A stretch of DNA of 64,000 nt from a virus. Under the pieces are notes generated by a model. It ran no database searches. It was not told the origin of the DNA and saw only the letters and a program-made list of their open reading frames with translations. The position numbers were made by a program, and so were the translations under genes. Positions 2,290-59,530 of the stretch are shown piece by piece. The stretch spans positions 1-64,000 of IMG/VR virus record IMGVR_UViG_3300027743_000001; one strand, written 5' to 3'. Within the stretch, counting starts at the first letter, position 1. Every line of letters starts with the position of its first letter.

Positions 2290-3122
2290 TCTTCCTCCTT
2301 CCCTTCTCCTGTGCTGGCCGACGCATCACCGATGGTTGACACGACGGCCGGCTCCGCCATCAGCGGCCCATCCTTGAACACCAGCTTGATCAACTTGGAG
2401 AACGTGGTGTTGCGCGCCGCGATCTCTTCTGTCGTCTTGCCGGTCACCTGAGGCAGGGTAACGATGGCCGGGATACGCCCACCCACCCGCTCGCCCGCCT
2501 CGATCCGACCAGGAAGACGCCGCGTGCGAAGCTTACGCACTTCCTGGCCCGTCTTGTTGTCCGCCTCCACAAACAGATATGCGGTGACGTCCATCAGATA
2601 AGGGACCACTGTGTTCAGTTGCCCCTGCAAGTGTGGCCGGAGCATACCGTCTCCGGTCTCTTTCGTCATGGCTGTGACGACCACGGCCTCCAGCGGGTGG
2701 TTGGCATGGAACGTCAGGTCCCGAAGGTCCCGCATGAACCCGCCCACGACCCGGAGAACCGAGCCCCAGTCCTGCAGCTTGACCTGGTTGCGCCCCGCCA
2801 CGTCCTCGATATAGCGGTACTGCAGCTCAGAGATGCTATCAACCGACGCCGACCGGAACGGGTGCTTCCCGCCGTGCAGCCAGTCGAACGTCCGCTGGGC
2901 ATCCTGCCATTCTCGAACCGAGACCACAGCCGTATCCCAGTCGGAGGTCTTAGACCAAGAGGGAGGGGGATCGCGCGGATCCCACGCGACCCCCCTGATC
3001 GGCAGGAACCTGGCCGCGCTCTCTACATCGAAATACACACGAGGTGCCGGAGTGCTGGCAGCCAAGAGGGATTTGCCCACCTTGGACATACCGTGCACCA
3101 GCATAGAGAGAGCAGGATCCAC
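2286..3122 (-). CDS. Sak4/AAA_24-like ATPase (ssDNA annealing/recombination)
   Basis: Walker A HGMSKVGKS, Walker B-like SVDSISELQ, DVTAYL; typical Cas4-Sak4-SSB context. Confidence 0.85.
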   Translation of the reverse strand: MDPALSMLVHGMSKVGKSLLAASTPAPRVYFDVESAARFLPIRGVAWDPRDPPPSWSKTSDWDTAVVSVREWQDAQRTFDWLHGGKHPFRSASVDSISELQYRYIEDVAGRNQVKLQDWGSVLRVVGGFMRDLRDLTFHANHPLEAVVVTAMTKETGDGMLRPHLQGQLNTVVPYLMDVTAYLFVEADNKTGQEVRKLRTRRLPGRIEAGERVGGRIPAIVTLPQVTGKTTEEIAARNTTFSKLIKLVFKDGPLMAEPAVVSTIGDASASTGEGKEEE

Positions 3123-3778
3123 TACGCCCTCGCAGGAGCGTTGAACTGGCCGTTAGGGTTGTGCCCCGGCGGACGGTTGGAAGCCGGAGCCGTGGAGAAC
3201 CAGTCCTGAGGAGTGAAGATCTCATCGTTCGGGTAGGGCTGAACCGGAGCAGGCTGCTCCGAGTCCTCCGCCTGAGTGACCTCGGAGTTGGTCATCCACT
3301 GCCCGTTAGGCCAGCGGGTGAGCATCTCGGCCCGGGACTCGGAACTGACCCGGTTGGTGTAGTCGACCAGCTCCCGCGCCGACACCGCGTCCTGCGTCTT
3401 CATGTCAACCACGTTGCTGCCGTTGTAGATCCGGACGCCGTACTCCGGCTCCGGCTGAGGCTCCGGCTGCTGGAACTGCTGCGCGATCTGCTCCGGAACG
3501 GGGAGCCGCTGCCGGAAGCTGTGGAGGTTGACGTCCGTGCGCGCCCACCGTCCACGGTGGAGGAACACCCACACGTCCCCACAGCGCAGGCACGCCCACA
3601 TGATGCCGGGGTGCCAGTTGTCCGCCGAAGGGCGGATGCACTCGTGCTGACCTTCTGCTGTCATGCTGCTACGGACCTCTCTAATAGCATCCACGATCTC
3701 CGGCTCGGGGACCGTAGACCGCTGGCTGGTAGGCCAGATTCTCCATCCGGTCATGATTATTACAACCTTCTCTCTCAC
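3122..3778 (-). CDS. hypothetical protein with CxxC and Pro/Gln-rich linker
   Basis: ORF in operon; WACLRCGDVW. Confidence 0.6.
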   Translation of the reverse strand: MREKVVIIMTGWRIWPTSQRSTVPEPEIVDAIREVRSSMTAEGQHECIRPSADNWHPGIMWACLRCGDVWVFLHRGRWARTDVNLHSFRQRLPVPEQIAQQFQQPEPQPEPEYGVRIYNGSNVVDMKTQDAVSARELVDYTNRVSSESRAEMLTRWPNGQWMTNSEVTQAEDSEQPAPVQPYPNDEIFTPQDWFSTAPASNRPPGHNPNGQFNAPARA

Positions 3779-3781
3779 CGG

Positions 3782-4009
3782 TCACCCTAACCACTCGTGT
3801 AGGGCCACGATCTCGGCACATGGCCAGCGCTGGCTACAGGATGTGCACAGCGTATGACCCACCTGGCCAGGCACGGTGCCTGGCATAGATTCCGTAGCCC
3901 CAGCTGTGTGTTCCATCAAAATGATCTCCACTAGATTGTGGAGCTTGTCGTCCGTGAGCAGGAGCGCACGGTCTCTAAGACACTCCACGTTCACCTGAAG
4001 TTTGCCCAC
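3782..4009 (-). CDS. hypothetical protein (H...CxxC...WPC zinc-binding type)
   Basis: GTG start just after the nuclease stop; LCTSCSQRWPC. Confidence 0.6.
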   Translation of the reverse strand: MGKLQVNVECLRDRALLLTDDKLHNLVEIILMEHTAGATESMPGTVPGQVGHTLCTSCSQRWPCAEIVALHEWLG

Positions 4010-4010
4010 G

Positions 4011-4943
4011 CTACACTGCCTCCTGGTCATCGGTATAGCGCTCGAACGGGTCTCCGACAACGTACAGGTCAGTGAGCATCTGCTCGGCCGCCGCCTTGCC
4101 GGTGGCCTGGTACTCCGCGCAAGGCAGCTTGAACGGGCAGGTAGCGCACTGCCACGACGGGTGGAACGGGGTAGCGATGCGATGGTCCAGCCCAGAGTCA
4201 AGATCACGCTTGGCCCGGATCATGTTGTTCAGAATGCCGATCAACCGGAACCGGTACGCCATCAGATCCATGTGGCTGATCGGGATCACCAGCCGCTTGT
4301 AGAACGGTGGCTTGGCCGCTGCCGTGCGGAGCACCTTCCTGAGCAGCGTGTAGACGATGCCGGCCACCCAGGGCTCCGCCTGGTCCCGATCTGAGCTGGC
4401 CTCTAGCAGCATGTAGAGCCGGCCCTGCGGGGACATCTCCAGACCCAGGATGGTTGGCTCACCGAAGTTGCCCACTGTCTTGTAGTCGTTGATGAAGATC
4501 GCACCGTCAGAGATCCGCCGGGACCGCCGGTCCAGCTTGCCCCGGACCAGGATGTCAACCGATTCCCCATCGACTTCCAGCGTGATCACTTCCTTGAGCT
4601 GCGCTTCCACGCCGAGAGTCTGCCAGTCGGCCGCCTCATCGTTGGCCCACTCGACGTATCCCTCCAGCATTGCGCGCCCGAGCTTGTTCTCCCTGTCCAA
4701 CCCGTCCGTGAACCCGCCGTGCGCCTTCTCGTACTCGTACATCATCAGCACGTCCCAAATGGCGCCGATATCGGCCCGACCATCTCCCTCCTCCCACAGC
4801 TCCAGCGCATGGTGGACCCGCGCGCCGAACGGAAGCGGCCCGGTTGGAGGCTCATCCTTGCGCCTGAGCTTCCTGTACGTGCCAAAAAACCATGAGCGTG
4901 GGCATGACATAAATCGCTGCATGTCCGAGTAGCTGGTCTGCAT
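4011..4943 (-). CDS. Cas4/RecB-like PD-(D/E)XK exonuclease
   Basis: SYSDMQRFMSCPRSW, FGARVHHALE, GKLDR, INDYKT, C-terminal CATCPFKLPC (Fe-S-type Cys). Confidence 0.9.
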   Translation of the reverse strand: MQTSYSDMQRFMSCPRSWFFGTYRKLRRKDEPPTGPLPFGARVHHALELWEEGDGRADIGAIWDVLMMYEYEKAHGGFTDGLDRENKLGRAMLEGYVEWANDEAADWQTLGVEAQLKEVITLEVDGESVDILVRGKLDRRSRRISDGAIFINDYKTVGNFGEPTILGLEMSPQGRLYMLLEASSDRDQAEPWVAGIVYTLLRKVLRTAAAKPPFYKRLVIPISHMDLMAYRFRLIGILNNMIRAKRDLDSGLDHRIATPFHPSWQCATCPFKLPCAEYQATGKAAAEQMLTDLYVVGDPFERYTDDQEAV

Positions 4944-7658: not shown

Positions 7659-8114
7659 ATGGGCGACAAGATCGCGAAGAAGGGCGAGGCTTTCGAGTCC
7701 TCGATCAAGTTCAACCGCCGCGTGCTGTGGGCGAATGATGAGATCGTCTTCTATGTCTATGATGGCGGCCCGACCGAGCAGTACAGCTCGGCCCCGCCGG
7801 AAGACTTCATGATCCTGCCCCAGCCCAAGCGGCCCGGCCTGAAGGTCGGAGACGCCGTGCGGCTGGCACACAGTGTCGGCAAGCAGCGCTTCCGCGTGCT
7901 CTACCTGATTGAGGAGTACGCGCTGATCAAGGATGAGCTGGCCTCCCCCCAGGAAGGGACCATCATCCAGATCGAGCTGGCCGAGCTGCTGGAGCCGGTC
8001 GGCTGGAATGTCAACCGGATCGACTGGCTTGATGACTCTACGTGGTCCGTGACGATCACCGGAACCGGCAAGATACCGGACTGGGCAGGCAACACCGACC
8101 ACCCGCTCTCTTAG
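7659..8114 (+). CDS. hypothetical protein
   Basis: ORF in tight operon; high-GC codon usage. Confidence 0.65.
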   Translation: MGDKIAKKGEAFESSIKFNRRVLWANDEIVFYVYDGGPTEQYSSAPPEDFMILPQPKRPGLKVGDAVRLAHSVGKQRFRVLYLIEEYALIKDELASPQEGTIIQIELAELLEPVGWNVNRIDWLDDSTWSVTITGTGKIPDWAGNTDHPLS

Positions 8115-8153
8115 GGGATTGTGAAGCACCAAACCGCCCACTAGTCTCCGGAC

Positions 8154-8390
8154 ATGAGGGTAGATGTCGGTAGCCTATGGAACGCCATGATCACGGCCGT
8201 AGAGGTCCTGGTTGTGGCGTGCATTCTCGTCCTGATCGTGCTGGTCCTAAGGAACGCCGCCACGGCCTCCCGCACCTGTAGACAGATGATCTGGGCACCC
8301 AGCCGGCACAACCATAGGTGTGCCGTCGCCAGGTATACGGAACACGCCGCTCACCGCTGCAAGTGCGGTTACCTCTGGGAGAACTATTAG
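8154..8390 (+). CDS. small membrane protein with Cys/His-rich C terminus
   Basis: TM segment VLVVACILVLIVLVL; TAGTCT 6 nt before ATG (leaderless). Confidence 0.6.
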   Translation: MRVDVGSLWNAMITAVEVLVVACILVLIVLVLRNAATASRTCRQMIWAPSRHNHRCAVARYTEHAAHRCKCGYLWENY

Positions 8391-8395
8391 CTGTG

Positions 8396-8424
8396 TTGGC
8401 AGCCGTTGATAAGCCTGCTACACT
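8396..8424 (+). promoter_or_regulatory. SigA-type promoter with tandem GTTG repeat
   Basis: TTGGCA-N17-TACACT with GCCGTTGAT in the spacer. Confidence 0.75.
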
Positions 8425-8456
8425 AGGTGTATCAGGCCAACACCGAGGAGCCCCCG

Positions 8457-8642
8457 ATGTCCGCGAAGCCCCGATTCACCGCCGAGCCCTACACCCTCCA
8501 ATACGCCGAGGCACCCGCCTACTTCTACGTTTGGGACAGCTTGCACAAGGCTATGCGCGGCGGGCGCTTCTCCACCCGCGAGGACGCTCAGCGCGAGGCG
8601 GACCGCCGCGAGGCAGCAGCCGAGCAGGGGAGCAGGAAATGA
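8457..8642 (+). CDS. hypothetical protein
   Basis: GAGGAG SD; FSTREDAQREAD. Confidence 0.7.
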   Translation: MSAKPRFTAEPYTLQYAEAPAYFYVWDSLHKAMRGGRFSTREDAQREADRREAAAEQGSRK

Positions 8643-8773
8643 TGGTCTGGACCCCGGAGCACGGAAGCACTTACGACCACGACCAGAACCCGGTCGTCTT
8701 CGCAGTACAGAGCTACGCCATGTGGATCAAGAAGATCGTCCGGGACATCCGGTTCCCGAACGGGCCGCGCTAA
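8639..8773 (+). CDS. hypothetical protein (44 aa)
   Basis: ATGA overlap with upstream gene; SD present. Confidence 0.5.
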   Translation: MMVWTPEHGSTYDHDQNPVVFAVQSYAMWIKKIVRDIRFPNGPR

Positions 8774-9255
8774 GTCCCCAGGACAGCGGCCACGTGCTTG
8801 GCCAGCAGCGGATCCTCACGCAGCTGAGTGAGCACCTCGAAGGCTAGCCGTGGCAGGCTGTCAACCGGCCGGCCCTCCGTCACCGCCGTGACCACTTCCT
8901 CCGGCGTACGCAGCACCCAGGCCCGGTAACGCTGGACCTCCAGCCGAGTGTGCGGGTCCATCCGATCCCCGACAGCCGGCCGGCACTCCACGCAGGGAAC
9001 CCGCCGTATCGTGCCCTCTTCCCCGGCTTCCAGCCAGGAGATCATCCGCCAGTTGACACGGGGGCAGGTCGGCTTGTGCGCCACAACCGAGCGGCCGATC
9101 TTGCTCATGACCCACTCGTCCGAGCCTGTCAACCGGTAGATCGCTAGCTCAGTCCACCGCACAGCGGACGGCCGCGTGCTGGTGGCCGAGGCAACCACGG
9201 TGGCCTCGAACTTCAGGAACCGCCGGCCGTCTCTGACGACGTGCGGCGCGGACAC
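8770..9255 (-). CDS. hypothetical protein
   Basis: RWTELAIYRL...KIGRSVVAH, CxxC. Confidence 0.7.
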   Translation of the reverse strand: MSAPHVVRDGRRFLKFEATVVASATSTRPSAVRWTELAIYRLTGSDEWVMSKIGRSVVAHKPTCPRVNWRMISWLEAGEEGTIRRVPCVECRPAVGDRMDPHTRLEVQRYRAWVLRTPEEVVTAVTEGRPVDSLPRLAFEVLTQLREDPLLAKHVAAVLGT

Positions 9256-44906: not shown

Positions 44907-46709
44907 TCACTCAACAGCGAACATAATACGCGGCACGCTTCCCGAAGGGTTTTTCGTAGGGAACGTGCTAGGGAACACGGGACTAAGGGGCAGGCTATCT
45001 ACGTATAGACCGCTATAGCCAGCGGCATTGACATCAGATGAGCCGATAATACCGGGATGCGATGTCGCGCCTGTAGCAATCAAGGTAGACGCTGCGGTGA
45101 CAGATCTGCCGGCAATCCAGTATCGACCCGGCTGCAAGATTACGCCGCCGGCCACGTTCGCTGTCCTAAGTCCGTTAACGGTGGTGTCGATAACACCTAG
45201 ATCATTTAGCAGTGCATCAGGACCTACCAGCGCCTTATGTGAGTACACTGCCACGCGATAGCTAGCGCTCGCGACTGCAGCTGTAACGCGCACAGCGATT
45301 CTCGTTATCGGAGTGGGGTCATCAAGAGTTAGTGGCCAGGTATAGATCGAGTCAGTAGGCGGGGGAAGTGTGGTGCCGCCAGGGTTTCCAACAAAGGGTT
45401 GTCCGTACCAAGCAACACCCATGCCGGTCATAGGGCGGATAGCTCCGCCTGCACTAGCGCCGCCGCCGGCCGCTGCGGGAGCTGAGGCCACCCAAGTACC
45501 AGGCGTGCCGGCAACCGTGCACATCCAGAACGCGCCAACGGAGTCCTGCACCGTCTCGTTGAGCAGCCACGCTCCGGTAGTAGGCGGACCAGGAGTAGTC
45601 AGGCGAGCGGCCAGGATTATCGAAGGATTGTTGTTCTTAGTGCCTATGTGTGCGGAGCCAGGAATTTCTGTCTTGCCAGTGACTTGAGGAGAATCCGTTA
45701 GAAACACGTTGAACAGAACCGTACCGTTGTAAGCCTGTAGCTGGAAGTTCCGGCCGCCGTTGCGAGCCTTAAAGGCAATGCCGTTGTTTGAGGTGTTCTG
45801 AACAATGTCAACCGACCCAGCGCTGGTCTGGAACCGCTCGAAAATCACATCCGGTGCGGGTGCCGTGGGGTTGACGATCACGGCAGGCACCGTGGTTGAC
45901 GCTGCGGGTGAGAATGACTTCTGGCCGGTGAACGTCTCCGTGCCGGCCAGGTGTGCCACCCCCGTATCCGTTGGGTTGAACATGGCTACCCACACCCGCT
46001 GCGCGGGAACCGGATTACCACCTGCGATCCACGTGACCGGGTAGGTGAAGTAGCCCGCCCCGAAGTCCCACACAGGTGCACCTGTCACCCGATACTTCTC
46101 GTACCGGGTGGAGTCATCCTTGTCCTGCATATCGATCTCAGTGCCCACCGCGACATGCTCAAGGATTCGGGTCACGTCGTTACCGGGAGCCGTCTTAACA
46201 TTGATATACATCTCTGTTACAGCCATGGGATCACTAGAGTTGGTGCGCACTTGGCCAGCTGCCGGAGGTGCCCCGGGGTTGGCATTGTAGGCGTACTCCA
46301 TGAACGTGCCGTTAGAGCCGGACGGCCCCTGTGGACCCTCCGGCCCTGTCAACCCGATAGGACCTTGCGGCCCCGGTGCGCCGTCCGCGCCGGCCGGACC
46401 AGGAGCCCCGTCTGCGCCGGCCGGGCCTGTTGGACCTGGCACTGTCGAGTCCGCGCCCGCCGGACCCTGCGGGCCGGGTGGACCTGTGGGACCAGGCTCA
46501 CCGACTGCACCCGGTGCCCCGATCACGAACGGGTCGGTTGACACGCCAGTGCCGGTGATCTCGATGTTCTCGCCGGCCACCAGCGTGCACCCGCAAAACT
46601 CGGAAGCCTCGCCACACCCGATGCAGCGGGACGTTGGAGACGTGGGGCTCTCGAACGTGACCGGCGTTCCGGTGCCGTCTTCGTCCTCACACTCAACGCA
46701 TCGAGACAT
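44907..46709 (-). CDS. collagen-like virion fibre protein
   Basis: About 20 Gly-X-Y triplets near the N terminus (about 46315-46515); beta-rich C-terminal domains. Confidence 0.75.
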
Positions 46710-54378: not shown

Positions 54379-54909
54379 ATGAAACTACGAAACCTTCTCA
54401 TGACCCTGCCCCTGATCGTCGGCGCCGGACTGGTGGTTGACAGCGCGCCAGCGGCGGCAGCTGCCAAGCCCCGTGTCGTCTGGGTGTACGTGCAAAACAA
54501 GAACACGGTCACCAAATACTGGCCGATCCACCGCGCTCTCAAGTTCGTGGACCAGTACACAGGAACTCAGTTCAAGTACGGGAAGTGCCCGGCCAGCGGC
54601 AAGTACAAGTGCATCACGATCAAGGAAGACTGGAAGCTGCCCCCGCTCTATGCCGGCATGGCCAACTTCATAGGACCCTACGTCCAGCTCCCCAACGGAG
54701 AAACCGACTGGAGCACCGTCATCCAGCTCCAGCCTCGCGAGCGTGGCCGCTCCTGGTGGATACGTTACGACACCGTGATCCACGAGCTGGGGCACGCGAT
54801 GGGGATCTACACCCACAACGCAGACTCCTCCCGGACCATGTACTGGATGGTCCGAGACAACAAACCGTCGTTCAGCCCGTCCGAAAAGAGAATCCTGCGC
54901 AGGCACTGA
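54379..54909 (+). CDS. secreted zinc metalloprotease (matrixin/M10-like), paralogue of 6790..7323
   Basis: Signal peptide; HELGHAMGIYTH, RTMY; both paralogues share FVDQxT and end in ILxRH. Confidence 0.85.
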   Translation: MKLRNLLMTLPLIVGAGLVVDSAPAAAAAKPRVVWVYVQNKNTVTKYWPIHRALKFVDQYTGTQFKYGKCPASGKYKCITIKEDWKLPPLYAGMANFIGPYVQLPNGETDWSTVIQLQPRERGRSWWIRYDTVIHELGHAMGIYTHNADSSRTMYWMVRDNKPSFSPSEKRILRRH

Positions 54910-54960: not shown

Positions 54961-55293
54961 TTACGGGTAGGTCGGCTCAGTCGGCTGAACCGGCATCGGC
55001 TCGGTCGGCTGCGGCTGCTCCGGCTGCTGCGGCTGAGGAATCTCTTCCTTAACCTCCGTCACGAAAAGCTCGTACGCCTCTTTCAGCGCGTCGAACCTCG
55101 CTTTGGCAACCTTCTTGGCCGTGTTCTTGGCGTCGGTCTTGTCCTCGGCATACGCCTCCTTGGCAGCCTCGAACTTAGCCTCCGCCGCTTTCTTCAGCTC
55201 CATGAGCTGAGCGATGGCACCCGCCGTGGGCGCCGGCTCCGGGGTGTCCCCGTTCTCATAGTCGCTGTGTGCATGCGTAGCGTCGTTACACAT
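54961..55293 (-). CDS. hypothetical helical protein with Pro/Gln/Glu tail
   Basis: AEK-rich helix; PQPQQPEQPQPTEP. Confidence 0.65.
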   Translation of the reverse strand: MCNDATHAHSDYENGDTPEPAPTAGAIAQLMELKKAAEAKFEAAKEAYAEDKTDAKNTAKKVAKARFDALKEAYELFVTEVKEEIPQPQQPEQPQPTEPMPVQPTEPTYP

Positions 55294-55346
55294 TGATCTT
55301 CACCCCCTCTCAGATCACCCCTATAGTGTACGTCACACCCCCTGTG

Positions 55347-55375
55347 TTGACAGGCGTTGACCCACGAGCTACAGT
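55347..55375 (+). promoter_or_regulatory. SigA-type promoter with tandem GTTGAC
   Basis: TTGACA-N17-TACAGT; GCGTTGACC in the spacer. Confidence 0.85.
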
Positions 55376-55405
55376 AGGGATGTACCCACTACTGAGGAGC
55401 CGAAA

Positions 55406-55597
55406 ATGATCCGCTGCGCACACTGCAAGGGCCGTCACCAGTACGTTGCCGACGTCCGCTACTGCGCTGACATGGCCGCCCACTGGGCCGAGGTTCAGGC
55501 GCAGGAAGAGGCCGACGCCGAGGCTCGGCAGGAGCGCTGGATCGAAGAGGCGGAGTACCGGCTGGCCTACGCCGAGAATGACCGTGAGGTCTGGTAG
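55406..55597 (+). CDS. small zinc-binding protein
   Basis: MIRCAHCKGRHQYVADVRYC; GAGGAG SD. Confidence 0.7.
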   Translation: MIRCAHCKGRHQYVADVRYCADMAAHWAEVQAQEEADAEARQERWIEEAEYRLAYAENDREVW

Positions 55598-55652
55598 CCC
55601 CCCGTTGACATCCGAGATATAGTCTAGCTATCACCACCACAAGGAGTCGATC

Positions 55653-55859
55653 ATGCAGAACCTCGCTCACGTTTTCATCGAGAAGCCCCAGTCCGAGATC
55701 GTGTCAACCATGGTCGCGCTGGCCAACCAGGCCCACGAGACATGGCACCGGGCCAGCCAGGAGGGCGCGGCGCCGTCCTACATCATCGCGCTGCACGCGC
55801 GCTATCAGGCATTTCAGATAGCAGCTGAGGTCGCTCAGGGGCTGGAGTCCCGCGCATGA
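55653..55859 (+). CDS. hypothetical protein (paralogue of 56041..56298)
   Basis: AAGGAG SD; LANQA...QEGAAP; upstream GTTGACA...TATAGT (55604-55623). Confidence 0.7.
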   Translation: MQNLAHVFIEKPQSEIVSTMVALANQAHETWHRASQEGAAPSYIIALHARYQAFQIAAEVAQGLESRA

Positions 55860-56044
55860 AGAACGACTGCAAGTCCGAACTACCTGCGCCGTTCTACGGG
55901 GTCCAGATCCATCACCAGTGCTCGGCCGGAGCAACCGGCCACACGGGCAATCACTACTGCGGGTGCTCGTACGAGTGGAACACCGAACTGATCATCTTGC
56001 ACGCGCCCGACCAGGCGACTGCCAAACCGAGGACATCGATATGA
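55856..56044 (+). CDS. small Cys/His-rich protein
   Basis: HQCSAGATGHTGNHYCGC. Confidence 0.55.
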   Translation: MKNDCKSELPAPFYGVQIHHQCSAGATGHTGNHYCGCSYEWNTELIILHAPDQATAKPRTSI

Positions 56045-56298
56045 TGCAAGACCCCGTCCACCTGTGGAATCGCCTCTCGCAGGAAGACATCGCGTGTCAA
56101 CTGGAGCACCTCGCCCGGCAGGCTGAGGCTGTCTGGGAGGAGGCTGTCAACCAGGAAGGCATGGCTCCCACCATCCTCGCTGCAATGCGGGTACGTGCGC
56201 ACGAGACCAGGCAGGCTGCGCTGATCGCTGCCGGCCGGAACAACATCATGTTGGACGTGATCCAGAGGACGGTGACCCGGGAGTGGGAAAAGGCATGA
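56041..56298 (+). CDS. hypothetical protein
   Basis: LARQA...QEGMAP; ATGA overlaps at both ends. Confidence 0.65.
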   Translation: MMQDPVHLWNRLSQEDIACQLEHLARQAEAVWEEAVNQEGMAPTILAAMRVRAHETRQAALIAAGRNNIMLDVIQRTVTREWEKA

Positions 56299-57743
56299 GG
56301 CGCCGGCTGGCTGACGATAGTGGCGCTTCTCTCATTATGGCGCTGATCTTCATCGTGGTCGTGGCCGTGGTGATGGGCGCTGTGCTTACCCTCACAGACG
56401 CGAACCTGCGCAACACCACAGCTCTGAGGGACCGAGCCGGCAAGGACTACGGCGCTGATGGCGCTGCCAAGATCGCGATCAAGCAGCTGGAGAATGACCA
56501 CTACCTTGGAGGCGACTGCCCCGCGCTGAACGTCCAGGCTGGCTACGCGGTCCAGTGTGTGGCCGATGAGGGCAACTCCACCGTGGGGGACATCAACTCT
56601 GTCAACCGGCAGGCAACCGCGCTGCTCGCAATGGCTCCGGCCGGACAGGGCCTCTACTTCAACATTCAGGGCAACCCAGCTACACAGTCGATCAAGGTCA
56701 AGGGTGGGCTGTTCTCGCACTCTGACTTCGTGGTTGATCACGGCTGGCTGGATTCTCTCGGCCCGGTGACCGCGCGGGGTGACTGCCTGCTGCTGAACGA
56801 CACGGCCAGGCTCACGTCTTCTAAGCAGGACTGCAAGATCATGACGGCTGTCAACCGGCTGGGCAAGGATCCGAACTATTCCGTTCCGGCCGTGACCGGG
56901 GATGCCACTGTGCAGCCATGCACCAAGACCAAGAAGACCCCCTACGTGGTGACGCCCGGCATTCTCGACGCTGCCGACATGATCGTGCTGAACAAGCTGA
57001 CCTCAAACCACGACGACTGCAAGGATGTGGTGATCTGGCTCAAACCAGGTGATTACCAGTTCAACGCGGTGTGGGAGATCAAGTCTGGCAAGGTGATTGG
57101 TGGAGGCAGCGGCGCGCCGCCGGACACTGTGGACCCCGAGAAGCAGGGATACTGCCCCGCTCCCATCCCGCTGGAGGGCCAGGAAGATACGTGGACCCCG
57201 CCGGCTGCCGACCTCGGAGTGACGATCACGTTCGGCCCATCCGCGCAGCTGTCAATGGTGCCTACGCCGACCAAGGTCACTCCCTCCATGGAGCTGTGCG
57301 GCGACTACGAGAAGAACAAGCCGCCGATCGTGTTCTATGGCAGGGCCGCTGCGCCAGATACTCTGGCCATCAAGACAGACGCTAACGCCGACTTCCGGCT
57401 GTACGTCCAGGGAACCACGTACCTGCCAACATCTGTGATTGACCTTCACCTTAAGAAGGACGTGCTTCCGTTCTTCCGCTCTGGCATCACGTCCTACCGG
57501 TTCCGTGTAGACGGGGTTGGCAACGCCAGCTCGGTCACGCCGCTGGTGGAGACTCCGGACGCTGAGGGCACCAGCAACTCCGGCATGGTGTGGCTGGAGG
57601 TCCGTAGCACGGATGACAACACCGTTCGGCTGCGGGCCAAGGTGTACTTCTACATGGCCAAGCAGACCGAGGATGAGCCGCCGGTTCCGATTGACCCGCC
57701 CCAGTACGCCAGCAAGGTTGTCAGCTGGGCCACGCAACGATAG
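56295..57743 (+). CDS. PilX-like minor pilin / pilus assembly protein
   Basis: MRRRLADDSG|ASLIMALIFIVVVAVVMGAVL class III-like signal lacking Glu5; YGADGAAKIAI; large Cys-containing beta domain. Confidence 0.75.
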   Translation: MRRRLADDSGASLIMALIFIVVVAVVMGAVLTLTDANLRNTTALRDRAGKDYGADGAAKIAIKQLENDHYLGGDCPALNVQAGYAVQCVADEGNSTVGDINSVNRQATALLAMAPAGQGLYFNIQGNPATQSIKVKGGLFSHSDFVVDHGWLDSLGPVTARGDCLLLNDTARLTSSKQDCKIMTAVNRLGKDPNYSVPAVTGDATVQPCTKTKKTPYVVTPGILDAADMIVLNKLTSNHDDCKDVVIWLKPGDYQFNAVWEIKSGKVIGGGSGAPPDTVDPEKQGYCPAPIPLEGQEDTWTPPAADLGVTITFGPSAQLSMVPTPTKVTPSMELCGDYEKNKPPIVFYGRAAAPDTLAIKTDANADFRLYVQGTTYLPTSVIDLHLKKDVLPFFRSGITSYRFRVDGVGNASSVTPLVETPDAEGTSNSGMVWLEVRSTDDNTVRLRAKVYFYMAKQTEDEPPVPIDPPQYASKVVSWATQR

Positions 57744-57752
57744 GCACACAGC

Positions 57753-57790
57753 AAGAAGCCCCCGGGTATTACTTCCCCGGGGGCTTCTTT
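57753..57790 (+). terminator. intrinsic terminator
   Basis: AAGAAGCCCCCGGG / CCCGGGGGCTTCTT(T). Confidence 0.85.
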
Positions 57791-57879
57791 GGTGTTTGCT
57801 CAACTTCACCACGCTGGGAGGATCCATGCCACCTCCTGCTCCCATCACTGTAGCTTGCCAGGTATCTAGTTTGCAAGTG

Positions 57880-57908
57880 TTGACATCCTGCGTACTACCG
57901 GCTAGGTT
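57880..57908 (+). promoter_or_regulatory. SigA-type promoter of the pilin gene
   Basis: TTGACA-N17-TAGGTT. Confidence 0.75.
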
Positions 57909-57953
57909 GGTCCTACACGCGGTGCTTGACCGCCTCACACCACTGGAGTATTC

Positions 57954-58301
57954 ATGCGTACCCGTCTCATGAAGCGCTACGCCGACCTTCGCAAGAAGGA
58001 AGACGGCTTCACCCTGATCGAGCTGCTGATCGTGATCGTCATCCTCGGCGTGCTGGCCGGCGTCGTCGTCTTCGCCGTCTCCGGCATCAACAACAAGGGC
58101 GAGGTCGCAGCCTGCAAGGCCGAGGCTAAGACCATTGAGGTTGCCTCCGAGGCTTACTATGCGCAGAAGGGCACCTACGCCGCTGCCGTCTTTGGCGCTG
58201 CCCCCATCAACAGCCTTGAGGCTGCCGGCCTGCTTCACGCCGACACGCTAGACCCCAAGATCACGTACACCGCTGGAGTCGTGACCAACACCTGCGGATA
58301 A
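57954..58301 (+). CDS. type IV pilin (prepilin, major-pilin-like)
   Basis: Basic leader then KKEDG|FTLIELLIVIVILGVLAGVVVFAV (G-1, F+1, E+5); Cys pair including the C-terminal Cys. Confidence 0.93.
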   Translation: MRTRLMKRYADLRKKEDGFTLIELLIVIVILGVLAGVVVFAVSGINNKGEVAACKAEAKTIEVASEAYYAQKGTYAAAVFGAAPINSLEAAGLLHADTLDPKITYTAGVVTNTCG

Positions 58302-58311
58302 GCAACAAGCA

Positions 58312-58347
58312 AAGGGCCGGACACCCGGGTGGGGTGTCCGGCCCTTC
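58312..58347. terminator. bidirectional terminator
   Basis: AAGGGCCGGACACCC / GGGTGTCCGGCCCTT between convergent genes. Confidence 0.8.
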
Positions 58348-58355
58348 TGTGTTGC

Positions 58356-59030
58356 CTAGAACTTGTCCCGGAACTTCAGGATGATGCCATTGCTCAGGGT
58401 GTCTGCCAGGTGAGCGATGTGATTCTGCGAAGCGTCGTAAGCCGTGAGGCTGTCCCCGAACCGCTTCTGCAGCTCGAACGTGATCTCAGAAATCAGCTGG
58501 CTGAGGTGGATCTGCATCGCGTCCCGCATGGCCTGTTGTGGCCAGTGCACCGGGTCCGCGTTGCTCAGGAAGTCCGCGATCTGGTTTCCGTTGATCCGCC
58601 ACGCGGTAACGGCTGCCGAGAGCGCTCCCTGGTTGTTGGCCTTGGCTGCTGTCAGCACAGCTACCGCTCCCGCGATGTGCGCCTTCAGGAGCCCTGTCAA
58701 CCGGGCTCCGTTCGTCTCCCCGTAGTAGGGGTTGATCGAACCGCCGATGTCCTCCTGGTTGCGCAGGAGCCGAGACGCCGTAGCGTTGAACCGCTCGTTC
58801 GGCTGAGGCTCAGCGATGAACTCCACAATGGCCAGTCGCGTGTACGCGACGTGCTCGAACCACAGCTGCCGCATCTTGTCGTGGAACACTCCCTCGGCCA
58901 GCGTCGCTGGAGGAGCCACTCGTGTGGGGGTTACAGCAACGGTGGGGGTCGGAGTCGGATTCGCTTTCGTGCAAGCGGCCATGGTCAGCGCGAGGCTAGC
59001 CACCACGAAAAGCGAGAGAATTTTTCTCAT
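58356..59030 (-). CDS. lipoprotein with His-containing helical-bundle domain
   Basis: Lipobox MAAC, PTPT linker, MRQLWFEHVAYTR...PYYG...LLKAHI...IADFL...HL...HIAHLAD. Confidence 0.75.
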   Translation of the reverse strand: MRKILSLFVVASLALTMAACTKANPTPTPTVAVTPTRVAPPATLAEGVFHDKMRQLWFEHVAYTRLAIVEFIAEPQPNERFNATASRLLRNQEDIGGSINPYYGETNGARLTGLLKAHIAGAVAVLTAAKANNQGALSAAVTAWRINGNQIADFLSNADPVHWPQQAMRDAMQIHLSQLISEITFELQKRFGDSLTAYDASQNHIAHLADTLSNGIILKFRDKF

Positions 59031-59097
59031 TGTCTGCCCTTTCGTCCGGGTTGCTGGAGCGTAACACGTGGTCTGGGTCACAAAGAAGGCCCGTTTG

Positions 59098-59126
59098 TTG
59101 ACACCCGTTGACAGACGAGCTAGTGT
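59098..59126 (+). promoter_or_regulatory. SigA-type promoter with tandem GTTGACA
   Basis: TTGACA-N17-TAGTGT; CCCGTTGACA in the spacer. Confidence 0.85.
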
Positions 59127-59183
59127 TTGTCATGTGAGCGGGAAACACCGCTCCTCCCCTTCTCCCTTAAGGAGGTGGTCATC

Positions 59184-59435
59184 ATGACCGCCATCAACAC
59201 CCTCCCCACCACCAACCTCCACTACACCTACAAGACCGTGGGCCAGCTCATCCTGGTCAACGTCGGAGACCTCAACGTGGGGCACATCGCGTGCTACCCA
59301 GAGGGCTTCAAGCTCTACTTCGCCGGGCAGGACGAGCCGGCCGGTGGCGGCGAGCTGCTGCCGACCCTGGCGGCGTGCGAGCACGTGCTCGGCCAGGCTG
59401 CGCTGCTGGCTCTGAAGGCCAAGCTGGGGGCGTGA
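59184..59435 (+). CDS. hypothetical protein (paralogue of 61442..61663)
   Basis: AAGGAGGT SD; GGGELLPTLAACE. Confidence 0.75.
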   Translation: MTAINTLPTTNLHYTYKTVGQLILVNVGDLNVGHIACYPEGFKLYFAGQDEPAGGGELLPTLAACEHVLGQAALLALKAKLGA

Positions 59436-59471
59436 CCCCCACGGGGGCGGCGAAAGCCGCCCCAAGAATTC

Positions 59472-59530
59472 CTCAGACGCTCCGCTGCGGAGCCGATAGG
59501 TCAGTTGTGAGCGAGGGAAAAGCCCCGCTC
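59472..59530 (+). promoter_or_regulatory. sigma-28-like promoter plus 5' leader hairpin
   Basis: CTCA-N16-GCCGATAGG, then GTGAGCGAGGGAAAAGCCCCGCTC. Confidence 0.65.

Follow-up and report, generated by a model that had tools for sequence, protein, structure and literature searches.

The complete genome of a phage, apparently a lytic phage of actinomycetes, carries a type IV pilin gene together with a gene for a predicted pilus cap, and it lacks genes for an ATPase, a platform protein, a peptidase and any further minor pilin. The pilin has 115 amino acids and is a type IV pilin by motif and profile criteria, and the second protein, of 482 amino acids, is predicted to be a cap subunit without Glu5 at the filament tip. 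Both genes are intact, are conserved in an independent relative and are under purifying selection in the parts relevant to assembly. Judged from the sequences, the chance that these two genes provide receptor replacement or superinfection exclusion is about even.

The phage genome and the prepilin gene

The window, that is the whole stretch of 64,000 nt that was analysed, is part of a complete virus record of 86.5 kb. The preliminary description had found no PilB, PilT, PilC or PilD gene in the window, and this can be extended to the whole record: the profiles for the pilus ATPase (PF00437) and the prepilin peptidase (PF01478) have no match across the 86.5 kb, and cellular PilT, PilB, PilC and PilD compared with the phage genome by tblastn give nothing below E 0.5. 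There is only one N_methyl site in the complete genome, cellular minor pilins match the pilin gene alone in tblastn (E 0.008 and 1.4e-5), and the remaining genome holds no pil genes besides the two reported here. The phage thus supplies two of four filament subunits. The profiles for tyrosine and serine integrases (Phage_integrase and Resolvase) have no match in the complete genome either, so any benefit from the genes must come within one lytic cycle.

A misassembled host fragment is ruled out because both genes recur in the independent relative L002, in swapped order and bordered by the same neighbours, because the GC3 of the two pilus genes (0.80 and 0.82) matches that of the phage core genes (0.77-0.82), and because contigs of run X1 bridge the junctions of the locus and tile them at even depth. 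Runs X2 and X3 account for small shares only, and X3 consists of short, partly unlike pieces. The octamers TGTCAACC at 56600 and 56849, previously taken as an argument against misassembly, are both present, but the motif occurs genome-wide and is not particular to the pilus locus, and a reading in which the two proteins bind DNA at the octamer was set aside. Close to the pilus genes are one for a secreted zincin-like protein and another for a lipoprotein-like protein.

The prepilin reading frame is intact and reads MRTRLMKRYADLRKKEDG/FTLIELL, where the slash marks the end of the leader, so the canonical prepilin of the preliminary description is upheld. The leader has 18 residues and the mature pilin 97, with Phe+1, Glu+5, Cys54 and Cys114. 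The leader is short and basic and has Gly as its last residue, with Phe+1 and Glu+5 behind it (KKEDG/FTLIE), in agreement with class III, and the hydrophobic N-terminal helix FTLIELLIVIVILGVLAGVVVFAV has the expected length of about 20 residues. The protein matches PF07963 (N_methyl) with E 1.4e-9 and 37.5 bits (cut-off 21.2), TIGR02532 with 32 bits (cut-off 16.3) and phrog_3433 'pilin' with E 6e-7; matches to the GspG and ComGC models cover the N-terminal part only and are below the cut-offs. An alignment of 15 sequences has 25 invariant columns, and the phage prepilin conforms to every one of them. Cys54 and Cys114 are invariant in all 15 aligned pilins and probably form a disulfide closing the globular domain.

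Table 1. Features of the pilus locus, with positions in the window.
Feature	Position	Strand	Basis or description
Predicted cap-type minor pilin, 482 aa	56295..57743	+	ORF; operon position, Gly-1, +5, dN/dS
Terminator-like hairpin	57753..57789	+	between the 482-aa gene and the pilin promoter; -33.2 kcal/mol, z -5.6
Pilin promoter, SigA-type	57880..57908	+	TTGACA (57880-57885), 17 nt, TAGGTT (57903-57908)
Pilin ribosome-binding site GGAG	57945..57948	+	5 nt before the pilin ATG; GGAG in L002 too
Prepilin, 115 aa	57954..58301	+	ORF; PF07963, TIGR02532, phrog_3433; 15-sequence alignment
Bidirectional terminator hairpin	58311..58347	.	16 pairs; shared by the pilin gene with its convergent neighbour 58356-59081

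The pilin gene has expression signals of its own (Table 1), and both the promoter and the terminator that had been described for it are present. The promoter is one of 15 sites of the form TTGACA-N16-18-TANNNT in the 86.5-kb genome, where 100 mononucleotide shuffles give 0.43 on average, and the stretch from -35 to -10 of the pilin promoter is letter-identical in L002. A consensus scan missed this promoter because TAGGTT matches TATAAT at only three of six positions. The hairpin behind the pilin gene is shared with the convergent lipoprotein-like gene and is strong on both strands (-42.6 kcal/mol on the plus strand and -44.4 on the minus strand, z -5.8 and -9.0). The hairpin behind the 482-aa gene has a 14-bp G+C-rich stem and a 9-nt loop followed by TGGTGTTTGC, and L002 has a hairpin at the equivalent place too, built on another stem sequence (-41 kcal/mol).

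The 482-residue family and its cellular operon

The start of the 482-aa gene overlaps the stop of a small upstream reading frame (ATGA). The protein begins with the leader MRRRLADDSG, which is followed by a 23-residue hydrophobic helix with no Glu at +5. These traits are general in the family: each of the 22 members has Gly at -1 and one of M, I, F and L at +5. A leader ending in Gly combined with the missing Glu at +5 marks the family as a candidate filament-priming cap subunit. Cap minor pilins of the GspK and PilK(PilX) type, from type II secretion and type IVa pili, were reportedly described by Korotkov and Hol in 2008. The filament is assembled from tip to base, and the subunit that caps the tip complex is one without Glu5, according to the excerpted text of PMC10191384. 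As these caps are presented there, they are likewise the largest minor pilin, have a class III-like leader ending in Gly, lack Glu5, come last in the minor-pilin block and are predicted to cap and prime the filament, as is the 482-aa family. The sequence likeness to GspK is confined to the N-terminus, where the phage protein gives a weak match to the GspK model (E 5.4e-4, 19.6 bits, cut-off 130).

The name 'PilX-like' used in the preliminary description fits at the level of the family, where PilX_N matches 9 of 22 members (best E 1.2e-5) and DUF7305 matches 3, but not for the phage protein itself, which has no Pfam match at E<=1. The family comprises 2209 cluster representatives at E<=1e-3 and no curated family reaches threshold on it. 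A profile search of solved structures gave no significant match, the sole row having E 0.73, and the ESM Atlas has a model neither for the phage protein nor for P0005. The C-terminal part of about 420 residues constitutes a separate Cys-rich family for which DUF7305 is a lead only; a language-model search points in a similar direction, with resemblance of the cap family to DUF7305 and pAdhesive_15 clusters at scores of 0.93-0.94, again as a lead only. All eight Cys that are invariant in the family are kept in the phage protein, which has 8 Cys compared with 10-13 in the cellular homologues and is without two Cys-bearing loops found in these. Identity to the cellular homologues is 33-40%, and the phage protein sits on a long branch of 1.48 in the gene tree.

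In cells, the two proteins have counterparts in a single type IVa-like operon with the order pilin, PilT, PilB, PilC, minor pilin 1, minor pilin 2, 482-aa family and prepilin peptidase. The 482-aa family is placed directly after minor pilin 2 in all 34 cellular loci, and the full order from pilA over pilT, pilB, pilC and the two minor pilins to the 482-aa family is seen in 29 of them, the other five being cut contigs. The phage pilin matches the first operon gene by tblastn with 45-69% identity in 29 of the 34 loci, which are all the cellular loci that reach far enough upstream to include that gene; the cut locus L006 has a 32% match inside the minor-pilin region. By these matches the phage pilin is orthologous to operon gene 1, in the major pilin position. 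The phage copies are thus counterparts of genes 1 and 7 detached from the operon, and with the other components absent both would depend on host machinery, in agreement with what had been suggested earlier. In locus L003, Pfam matches confirm PilT, one T2SSF protein, a PilB that contains MshEN and a pilin of the GFTLIE type. A Tad/TadG system was considered and rejected, as the operon with its PilT, MshEN-type PilB, single T2SSF protein and GFTLIE pilin is not a tad locus, and no Tad family is among the recurrent Pfam matches of the 482-aa family members.

The operon is found in some Micromonosporaceae, Nocardioides and Pseudonocardiaceae, and among 201 sampled genomes from the family of Luedemannella helvata it was found in 23. 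Luedemannella-like Micromonosporaceae are the closest cellular relatives of the 482-aa protein in the gene tree, and the first 24 mature residues of the phage pilin are identical to those of the L. helvata pilin. Tree position and helix identity together suggest a Micromonosporaceae-like actinomycete as host. The preliminary description had named Actinoplanes as an example of piliated actinomycetes; no Actinoplanes locus is among the 34 matched. Kimura et al. reportedly described type IV pili on the zoospores of Actinoplanes missouriensis in 2019, which would place such pili in a member of the Micromonosporaceae outside these loci.

Selection and variation in the phage copies

Comparison with L002 gives a dN/dS of 0.16 for the 482-aa gene and of 0.19 for pilin codons 1-70. 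From about residue 70, the C-terminal part of the pilin has no DNA similarity to L002. The same division is seen in five phage-type pilins, which share 82-90% identity over residues 1-72 and only 10-41% in the exposed C-terminus (the pilins P0010-P0012 being counted as phage-borne on the basis of their phage-type leader only). This hypervariable exposed C-terminus reads as the signature of an arms race.

When viral contigs were scanned with the single cap protein or with the cap profile, L002 alone was recovered. A scan with the pilin alone gave L002 again and an unrelated prepilin-type gene on contig L038, and a scan with the pilin profile gave L121, an unrelated viral contig with an orphan pilin, the low-G+C contig L122, and L123. 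The latter also has pilB and pilD and was set aside as probably cellular. Among 50,697 phage records, blastn with positions 55000-59500 found nothing, nor did tblastn with both proteins, where the low-complexity filter was on and may mask the pilin helix. A metagenome scan with the pilin, in which the generic helix pattern dominated, yielded 311 relatives, of which 80 were kept; as none exceeded 66% identity, no further phage-type copy came from it.

Possible roles and relation to known systems

If the genes act in receptor replacement or superinfection exclusion, host RNA polymerase would use the SigA-type promoter of the pilin early in infection and would transcribe the cap gene along with the small genes upstream of it. 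The host prepilin peptidase would cut both phage proteins after Gly. Host PilB and PilC, with the two Glu5-bearing minor pilins of the host, would begin new filaments at the phage cap and lengthen them with pilin of the phage. The pili of the infected cell would become phage-specified at the tip and on the shaft surface, and pilus-adsorbing phages, whether own progeny, relatives or competitors, would no longer bind to infected cells or debris. We know of no phage of these hosts that uses a pilus for receptor, and to our knowledge neither a pilus-dependent phage nor such a pilus-subunit defence has been described for Micromonosporaceae-like actinomycetes. In favour of this reading are the intact prepilin motifs, the operon position and Glu5-less start of the cap family, the missing machinery, the purifying selection, the variable pilin C-terminus, the trimmed cap loops, the promoter, ribosome-binding site and terminators shared with L002, and the FimU precedent. 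Counting against exclusion are the missing integrase, the supply of only two of the four subunits, the strongly diverged cap and its lack of a Pfam match.

Tentatively, the two genes may be taken together as a matched two-part kit for re-dressing the pilus, in which the cap starts the filament and the pilin coats it, making pili phage-specified from tip to base. A phage-versus-phage arms race over the pilus receptor in Micromonosporaceae-like hosts would then have left its traces in the variable surface of the pilin, the trimmed loops of the cap and the shuffled promoter-pilin cassette.

It is also conceivable that the phage subunits enter the host machine and stall it, through wrong stoichiometry or through a cap unable to dock to host minor pilins, with the result that infected cells lose their pili. 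The phage could benefit because nothing adsorbs to infected cells, or because the cell loses DNA uptake or motility that relies on the pilus. The strong divergence of the cap, its two missing Cys loops, the provision of only two of four filament subunits and the strong promoter belonging to the pilin alone are all compatible with such poisoning. Overexpression of FimU alone disrupts pilus assembly according to the excerpts of PMC12952977, and pilus dynamics are tuned by the ratio of minor to major pilins according to those of PMC13249403. However, poisoning needs neither an intact globular pilin domain with a disulfide nor a hypervariable exposed C-terminus, every invariant residue is retained in both families, and a full major pilin plus a cap suits filament building better than blocking. 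Poisoning is considered unlikely.

A change in the behaviour of the host, with altered or raised piliation affecting adhesion, aggregation, surface motility or DNA uptake and thereby aiding spread with no role in exclusion, is improbable. It would agree with the nearness of the cap family to the DUF7305 and pAdhesive_15 clusters, which is a lead only at its scores of 0.93-0.94, and with the zincin-like and lipoprotein-like neighbours, which suggest a cell-surface module; large tip pilins serve as adhesins in other systems (PMC11623550, in its excerpted text). On the other hand, long-term lysogenic conversion is not expected when no integrase is found, and pilin hypervariability confined to the surface among close relatives is more typical of evading a binding partner than of conserved adhesion.

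It is very improbable that the 482-aa protein is a TadG-like or other membrane protein and no pilus subunit, as the UniRef name of the L. helvata homologue ('TadG-like N-terminal domain'), the absence of a Pfam match for the phage protein and the solved-structure search might suggest, or that the two genes are passengers in decay or stem from faulty assembly, given the type IVa-like context in 34 of 34 loci (PilT, one PilC, PilB with MshEN), PilX_N rather than Tad as the recurrent family match, the dN/dS of 0.16, and an independent relative with the same genes and flanks, phage-like composition and contigs bridging the junctions.

The reading as receptor replacement or exclusion has its closest parallel in Pseudomonas, where a prophage FimU is built into the pilus tip and blocks tip-binding phages (Sztanko et al., Cell Rep 2026, PMC12952977). 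Pilus-component receptor mimics encoded by phages were first shown only recently, in that genus. The P-FimU of F10-like Pseudomonas aeruginosa phages and the phage cap are both phage-encoded host tip components that require host machinery, and the proposed logic, replacement of a receptor component, is the same when the two are likened by description. P-FimU copies are also diverse among related phages and unlike the host version in their surface loops and C-terminus (PMC12952977). P-FimU is, as described there, a small minor pilin of the FimU/GspH type, expressed from a prophage in a Gram-negative host and experimentally shown to work. The actinophage locus is known from its genes alone and differs in having a large cap without Glu5 and a major pilin alongside. 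It shares with P-FimU the presence of a pilus structural homologue in a phage without the machinery, but not the expression from a prophage, as there is no tyrosine or serine integrase.

Four groups of PilA-like genes are known from non-temperate phages, and others from Xylella prophages (PMC12952977). Like the actinophage pilin, these are major-pilin homologues without machinery, and their non-temperate carriers match the missing integrase; they are proteobacterial, and section 17 of that paper reports no accompanying cap gene. Tip, Aqs1 and PlzR have the same presumed outcome, in that pilus-dependent phages cannot adsorb to the infected or lysogenic cell, but these are, as characterised in the excerpted literature, small proteins of the cytoplasm with PilB or PilZ as their binding partner, whereas the actinophage genes encode filament subunits. 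The earlier statement that most characterised inhibitors of pili from phages are small proteins binding the ATPase has been overtaken by the prophage FimU mimics and the PilA-like proteins (PMC12952977). A literature search on actinophage pilins found none reported among the matches listed. Compared with the FimU mimics as they are described in the text of that paper, the locus is new in that its host belongs to another phylum and in that a shaft gene and a cap gene come together. Taken as a whole, the earlier interpretation is partly supported.

These findings suggest that the receptor-mimic strategy exists in Gram-positive actinomycetes of high G+C content in a fuller form, with shaft and cap together in a lytic-looking phage. 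They draw attention to a conserved and little-studied eight-gene type IVa-like pilus operon, and predict that the pilus of this actinobacterial operon serves phages as a receptor. For the 482-aa family, the role gained would be that of the cap without Glu5.

Pilus genes of the phage and their signals

The window (bases 1-64000) belongs to a larger virus record in IMG/VR. This record has 86,542 bases, a CheckV completeness of 100 and direct terminal repeats, measured at 28 bases. Genes of siphovirus type (portal, large terminase, major head protein, major tail protein and tape measure) are found on the minus strand, and the portal shares 39-42% identity with those of Microbacterium and Gordonia phages. 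The phage looks lytic, since a search of the entire record for integrases of the tyrosine and serine types found none. A freshwater sediment metagenome run contains 0.90 of the locus's sampled words and may be the source sample.

Features of the pilus locus and its surroundings
Feature	Position	Strand	Description
Protein with tail-fibre family matches	44907-46709	-	600 aa; adjoins large terminase gene, distant from tail module
Zincin-like protein	54379-54909	+	176 aa; signal-peptide-like N-terminus, HELGH zincin motif
Small ORF	55653-55859	+	5' of cap gene
Small ORF	~56041-56298	+	5' of cap gene
482-aa ORF (cap gene)	56295-57743	+	ATG overlaps stop codon of small ORF upstream
Hairpin 5' of pilin unit	57753-57789		-33.2 kcal/mol
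Pilin promoter	57880-57908	+	TTGACA-17-TAGGTT; 5' of pilin gene, GGAG site also upstream
Prepilin	57954-58301	+	115 aa; 18-residue basic leader with terminal Gly, Phe+1, Glu+5, hydrophobic helix
Hairpin 3' of pilin unit	58311-58347	both	-42.6 and -44.4 kcal/mol; common to convergent gene
Lipoprotein-like protein	58356-59081	-	241 aa; lipobox-like LTMAAC, convergent toward pilin terminator
Other TTGACA-N16-18-TANNNT sites	5783, 25855, 51536, 55347, 59098, 62976 and others		

The preliminary description proposed a canonical prepilin with its own promoter, and motif, scores and upstream sequence all agree: the prepilin is above the curated cut-offs of both PF07963 and TIGR02532. A TATAAT-based promoter scan did not list the promoter. 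The pattern TTGACA-N16-18-TANNNT occurs at 15 sites in the 86.5-kb genome, the pilin promoter among them, versus 0.43 in shuffles. Approximately ten of these sites have a second box (GTTGAC, GTTGAG, GTTGGC or GTTGGG) 3 bases past the first, and the pilin promoter, contrary to most of the other 14, has no such box in its spacer. Two further motifs are frequent. The octamer GGTTGACA / TGTCAACC has 102 exact occurrences in 86.5 kb (41 + 61), and the 12-mer CTGTCAACCGGC has 14 matches with at most one mismatch in the window, located between 8858 and 62330, versus 0.54 expected. The cap gene contains two exact copies (56599 and 56848), whereas the pilin gene has no exact copy.

The same description found no pilus machinery gene in the window, which holds for the whole record: there is no T2SSE or A24 peptidase domain and a single N_methyl site, and a six-frame motif scan gave one true prepilin. 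Searches (tblastn) with cellular PilT, PilB, PilC and PilD rendered nothing below E 0.5, and the only match of two cellular minor pilins was the pilin gene itself (E 0.008 and 1.4e-5).

A cap-like subunit and its cellular relatives

The 482-aa phage protein alone has no match in Pfam or PHROG and matches the GspK model weakly in its N-terminal part. A word-indexed search with it rendered eight proteins, and a 22-member profile of its family 2209 cluster representatives at E<=1e-3 (613 at E<=1e-30). Genome assemblies of Luedemannella, Dactylosporangium, Catelliglobosispora, Rhizocola, Nocardioides, Amycolatopsis, Marmoricola and MAGs provide 34 cellular loci, in all of which the homologue lies directly 3' of the second minor pilin. 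The full order (pilin, PilT-like ATPase, PilB-like ATPase, PilC, minor pilin 1, minor pilin 2, 482-aa homologue) is found in 29, the other five being contigs that end early, and a prepilin peptidase gene lies adjacent in 31. Pfam matches at the Luedemannella helvata locus are N_methyl, T2SSE twice (one with MshEN), T2SSF, N_methyl and A24_N_bact with Peptidase_A24.

In the alignment of 22 family members, the predicted cleavage site carries Gly throughout, and position +5, the fifth residue after that site, is hydrophobic in every member and Glu in none. PilX_N matches nine members and DUF7305 three, a direction with which a language-model search agrees as a lead only. According to a review (PMC10191384), the capping subunit in tip complexes of minor pilins is the one without Glu5, and filament assembly proceeds from the tip towards the base. 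From operon position, the cleavage-site Gly, the lack of Glu5, the PilX_N matches within the family and that description of a cap, the 482-aa protein is read as a predicted cap or priming subunit of a type IV pilus. The body of the family is rich in cysteine with eight invariant residues, which is consistent with an extracellular protein. The Nocardioides members (L014, L016, L017, L020-L026, L029 and L035) are longer, about 650-750 aa, and their profile match is split in two, which suggests an extra inserted domain.

A maximum-likelihood tree of 22 sequences places the phage cap pair on a long branch (1.48) in a clade with L. helvata, L. flava, one MAG and two metagenome proteins (support 100/99), and once mature, the phage pilin matches that of L. 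helvata without a difference over its first 24 residues. This points to a probable host among Luedemannella-like Micromonosporaceae, a family in which 23 of 201 sampled genomes carry the cap family.

Rearrangement and variable surfaces

Both pilus genes are found in an independent viral contig of 86,173 bases, IMGVR_UViG_3300027743_000025, with the same flanks as in the window: on one side the gene of a secreted zincin-like protein together with small ORFs, and on the other the convergent lipoprotein-like gene. The gene order is swapped: hairpin, promoter and pilin lie as one block upstream of the cap gene in this relative and downstream of it in the window. In blastn comparisons, window 56286-57730 aligns with 3444-4887 (87.6%) and 57747-58162 with 2823-3242 (82.4%). 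The hairpin has travelled with the promoter-pilin cassette; its stem differs in sequence between the two phages with the folding retained, and the promoter is letter-identical from -35 to -10.

GC3 is 0.80 and 0.82 in the two pilus genes, as in phage core genes (0.77-0.82) and lower than in Luedemannella homologues (0.90-0.94). For the single sequence pair of window and relative, dN/dS is 0.16 in the cap gene (dS 0.41) and, in the pilin, 0.19 for codons 1-70 and 0.87 for the remainder, which aligns poorly and has no similarity at the DNA level. Both pilus genes are owned and maintained by the phage. Contigs of metagenome run X1 span the junctions from cap gene through promoter to pilin and cover the locus at depth 11-17 without differences, except for one variant pilin piece; this tiling is not independent support, since X1 may be the source sample. 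The exception is a second contig over 57969-58078, in the conserved pilin N-terminus, with four differences and depth 22, which may represent another pilin variant or a host pilin.

The flanking genes vary to different degrees. The zincin-like gene (80% identity to the relative, dN/dS 0.25) has weak Matrixin and Astacin matches under the cut-off and possibly encodes a secreted metalloprotease. The lipoprotein-like gene, with only 55% identity and dN/dS 0.35, has no significant family match; its product is a predicted fast-evolving envelope protein beside the pilus genes. The two small ORFs resemble paralogues with the common pattern ...QAH/AE..W......G.AP...A...R...., are kept in the relative and match no family.

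The leader MKRYADLRKKEDG is common to five pilins, those of the window, the relative and the sequences P0010, P0011 and P0012; on the leader alone, the latter three appear to be phage-borne. Identity among the five is 82-90% over residues 1-72 and 10-41% beyond, a C-terminal divergence similar to that of pilins across actinobacterial families (mean 22%). The phage caps lack two Cys-bearing loops and one further segment of the cellular homologues (8 Cys versus 10-13) and have short insertions close to the C-terminus. The divergent pilin C-terminus and the altered cap loops may be signs of an arms race.

Precedent and possible role

A published account of P-FimU, a prophage FimU of Pseudomonas phages (PMC12952977), describes it as acting at the pilus tip by receptor replacement and notes PilA-like genes in non-temperate phages. 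The logic proposed here is alike, a phage pilus component making pili unusable to phages, and as this principle is in print the finding is not categorically new. As far as the searches reach, what is new is the host phylum, the pairing of a major pilin with a Glu5-less cap, and the mobile promoter-pilin cassette. A tblastn search of 50,697 phage records with the cap protein and the pilin, run with the low-complexity filter on, rendered nothing, scans of a viral contig collection found the cap gene only in the one relative, and no literature on actinophage pilins was found among the matches listed. A 2019 review (PMC6916266) describes the actinobacterial pili studied until then as of the Tad/Flp type. 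Pilin-like genes also occur in unrelated viral contigs. IMGVR_UViG_3300047508_000046 (L121; 49 kb, 61% GC) has an orphan GFTLVELL-type pilin at 7914-8405 amid helicase, primase and polymerase-like genes, with no cap gene or machinery within the 16 kb read, and IMGVR_UViG_3300037313_001148 (L038) encodes at 7938-9095 a 385-aa protein with the prepilin-type N-terminus AFTMIELLIVIVVL.

The phage has two pilus subunits that rely on host machinery and are maintained, with a variable surface in the pilin, and their most likely use, with an even chance of being the right one, is receptor replacement or superinfection exclusion by phage-specified pili. It is unlikely that the phage subunits instead poison pilus assembly, and slightly less likely again that they convert the behaviour of the cell in adhesion, aggregation, motility or DNA uptake. 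That the genes have nothing to do with pili, or have no function, is highly improbable.

Under receptor replacement, both genes would be transcribed early by the host polymerase and their products cleaved by the host peptidase. The phage cap would prime new filaments and the phage pilin extend them, while the host would contribute the motors and its two minor pilins with Glu5. Filament turnover within one lytic cycle is plausible because the host-type operon encodes a PilT-like retraction ATPase. The resulting pili would be unusable by pilus-binding phages, so that the infected cell would be shielded from superinfection and the progeny spared adsorption to infected cells or debris.
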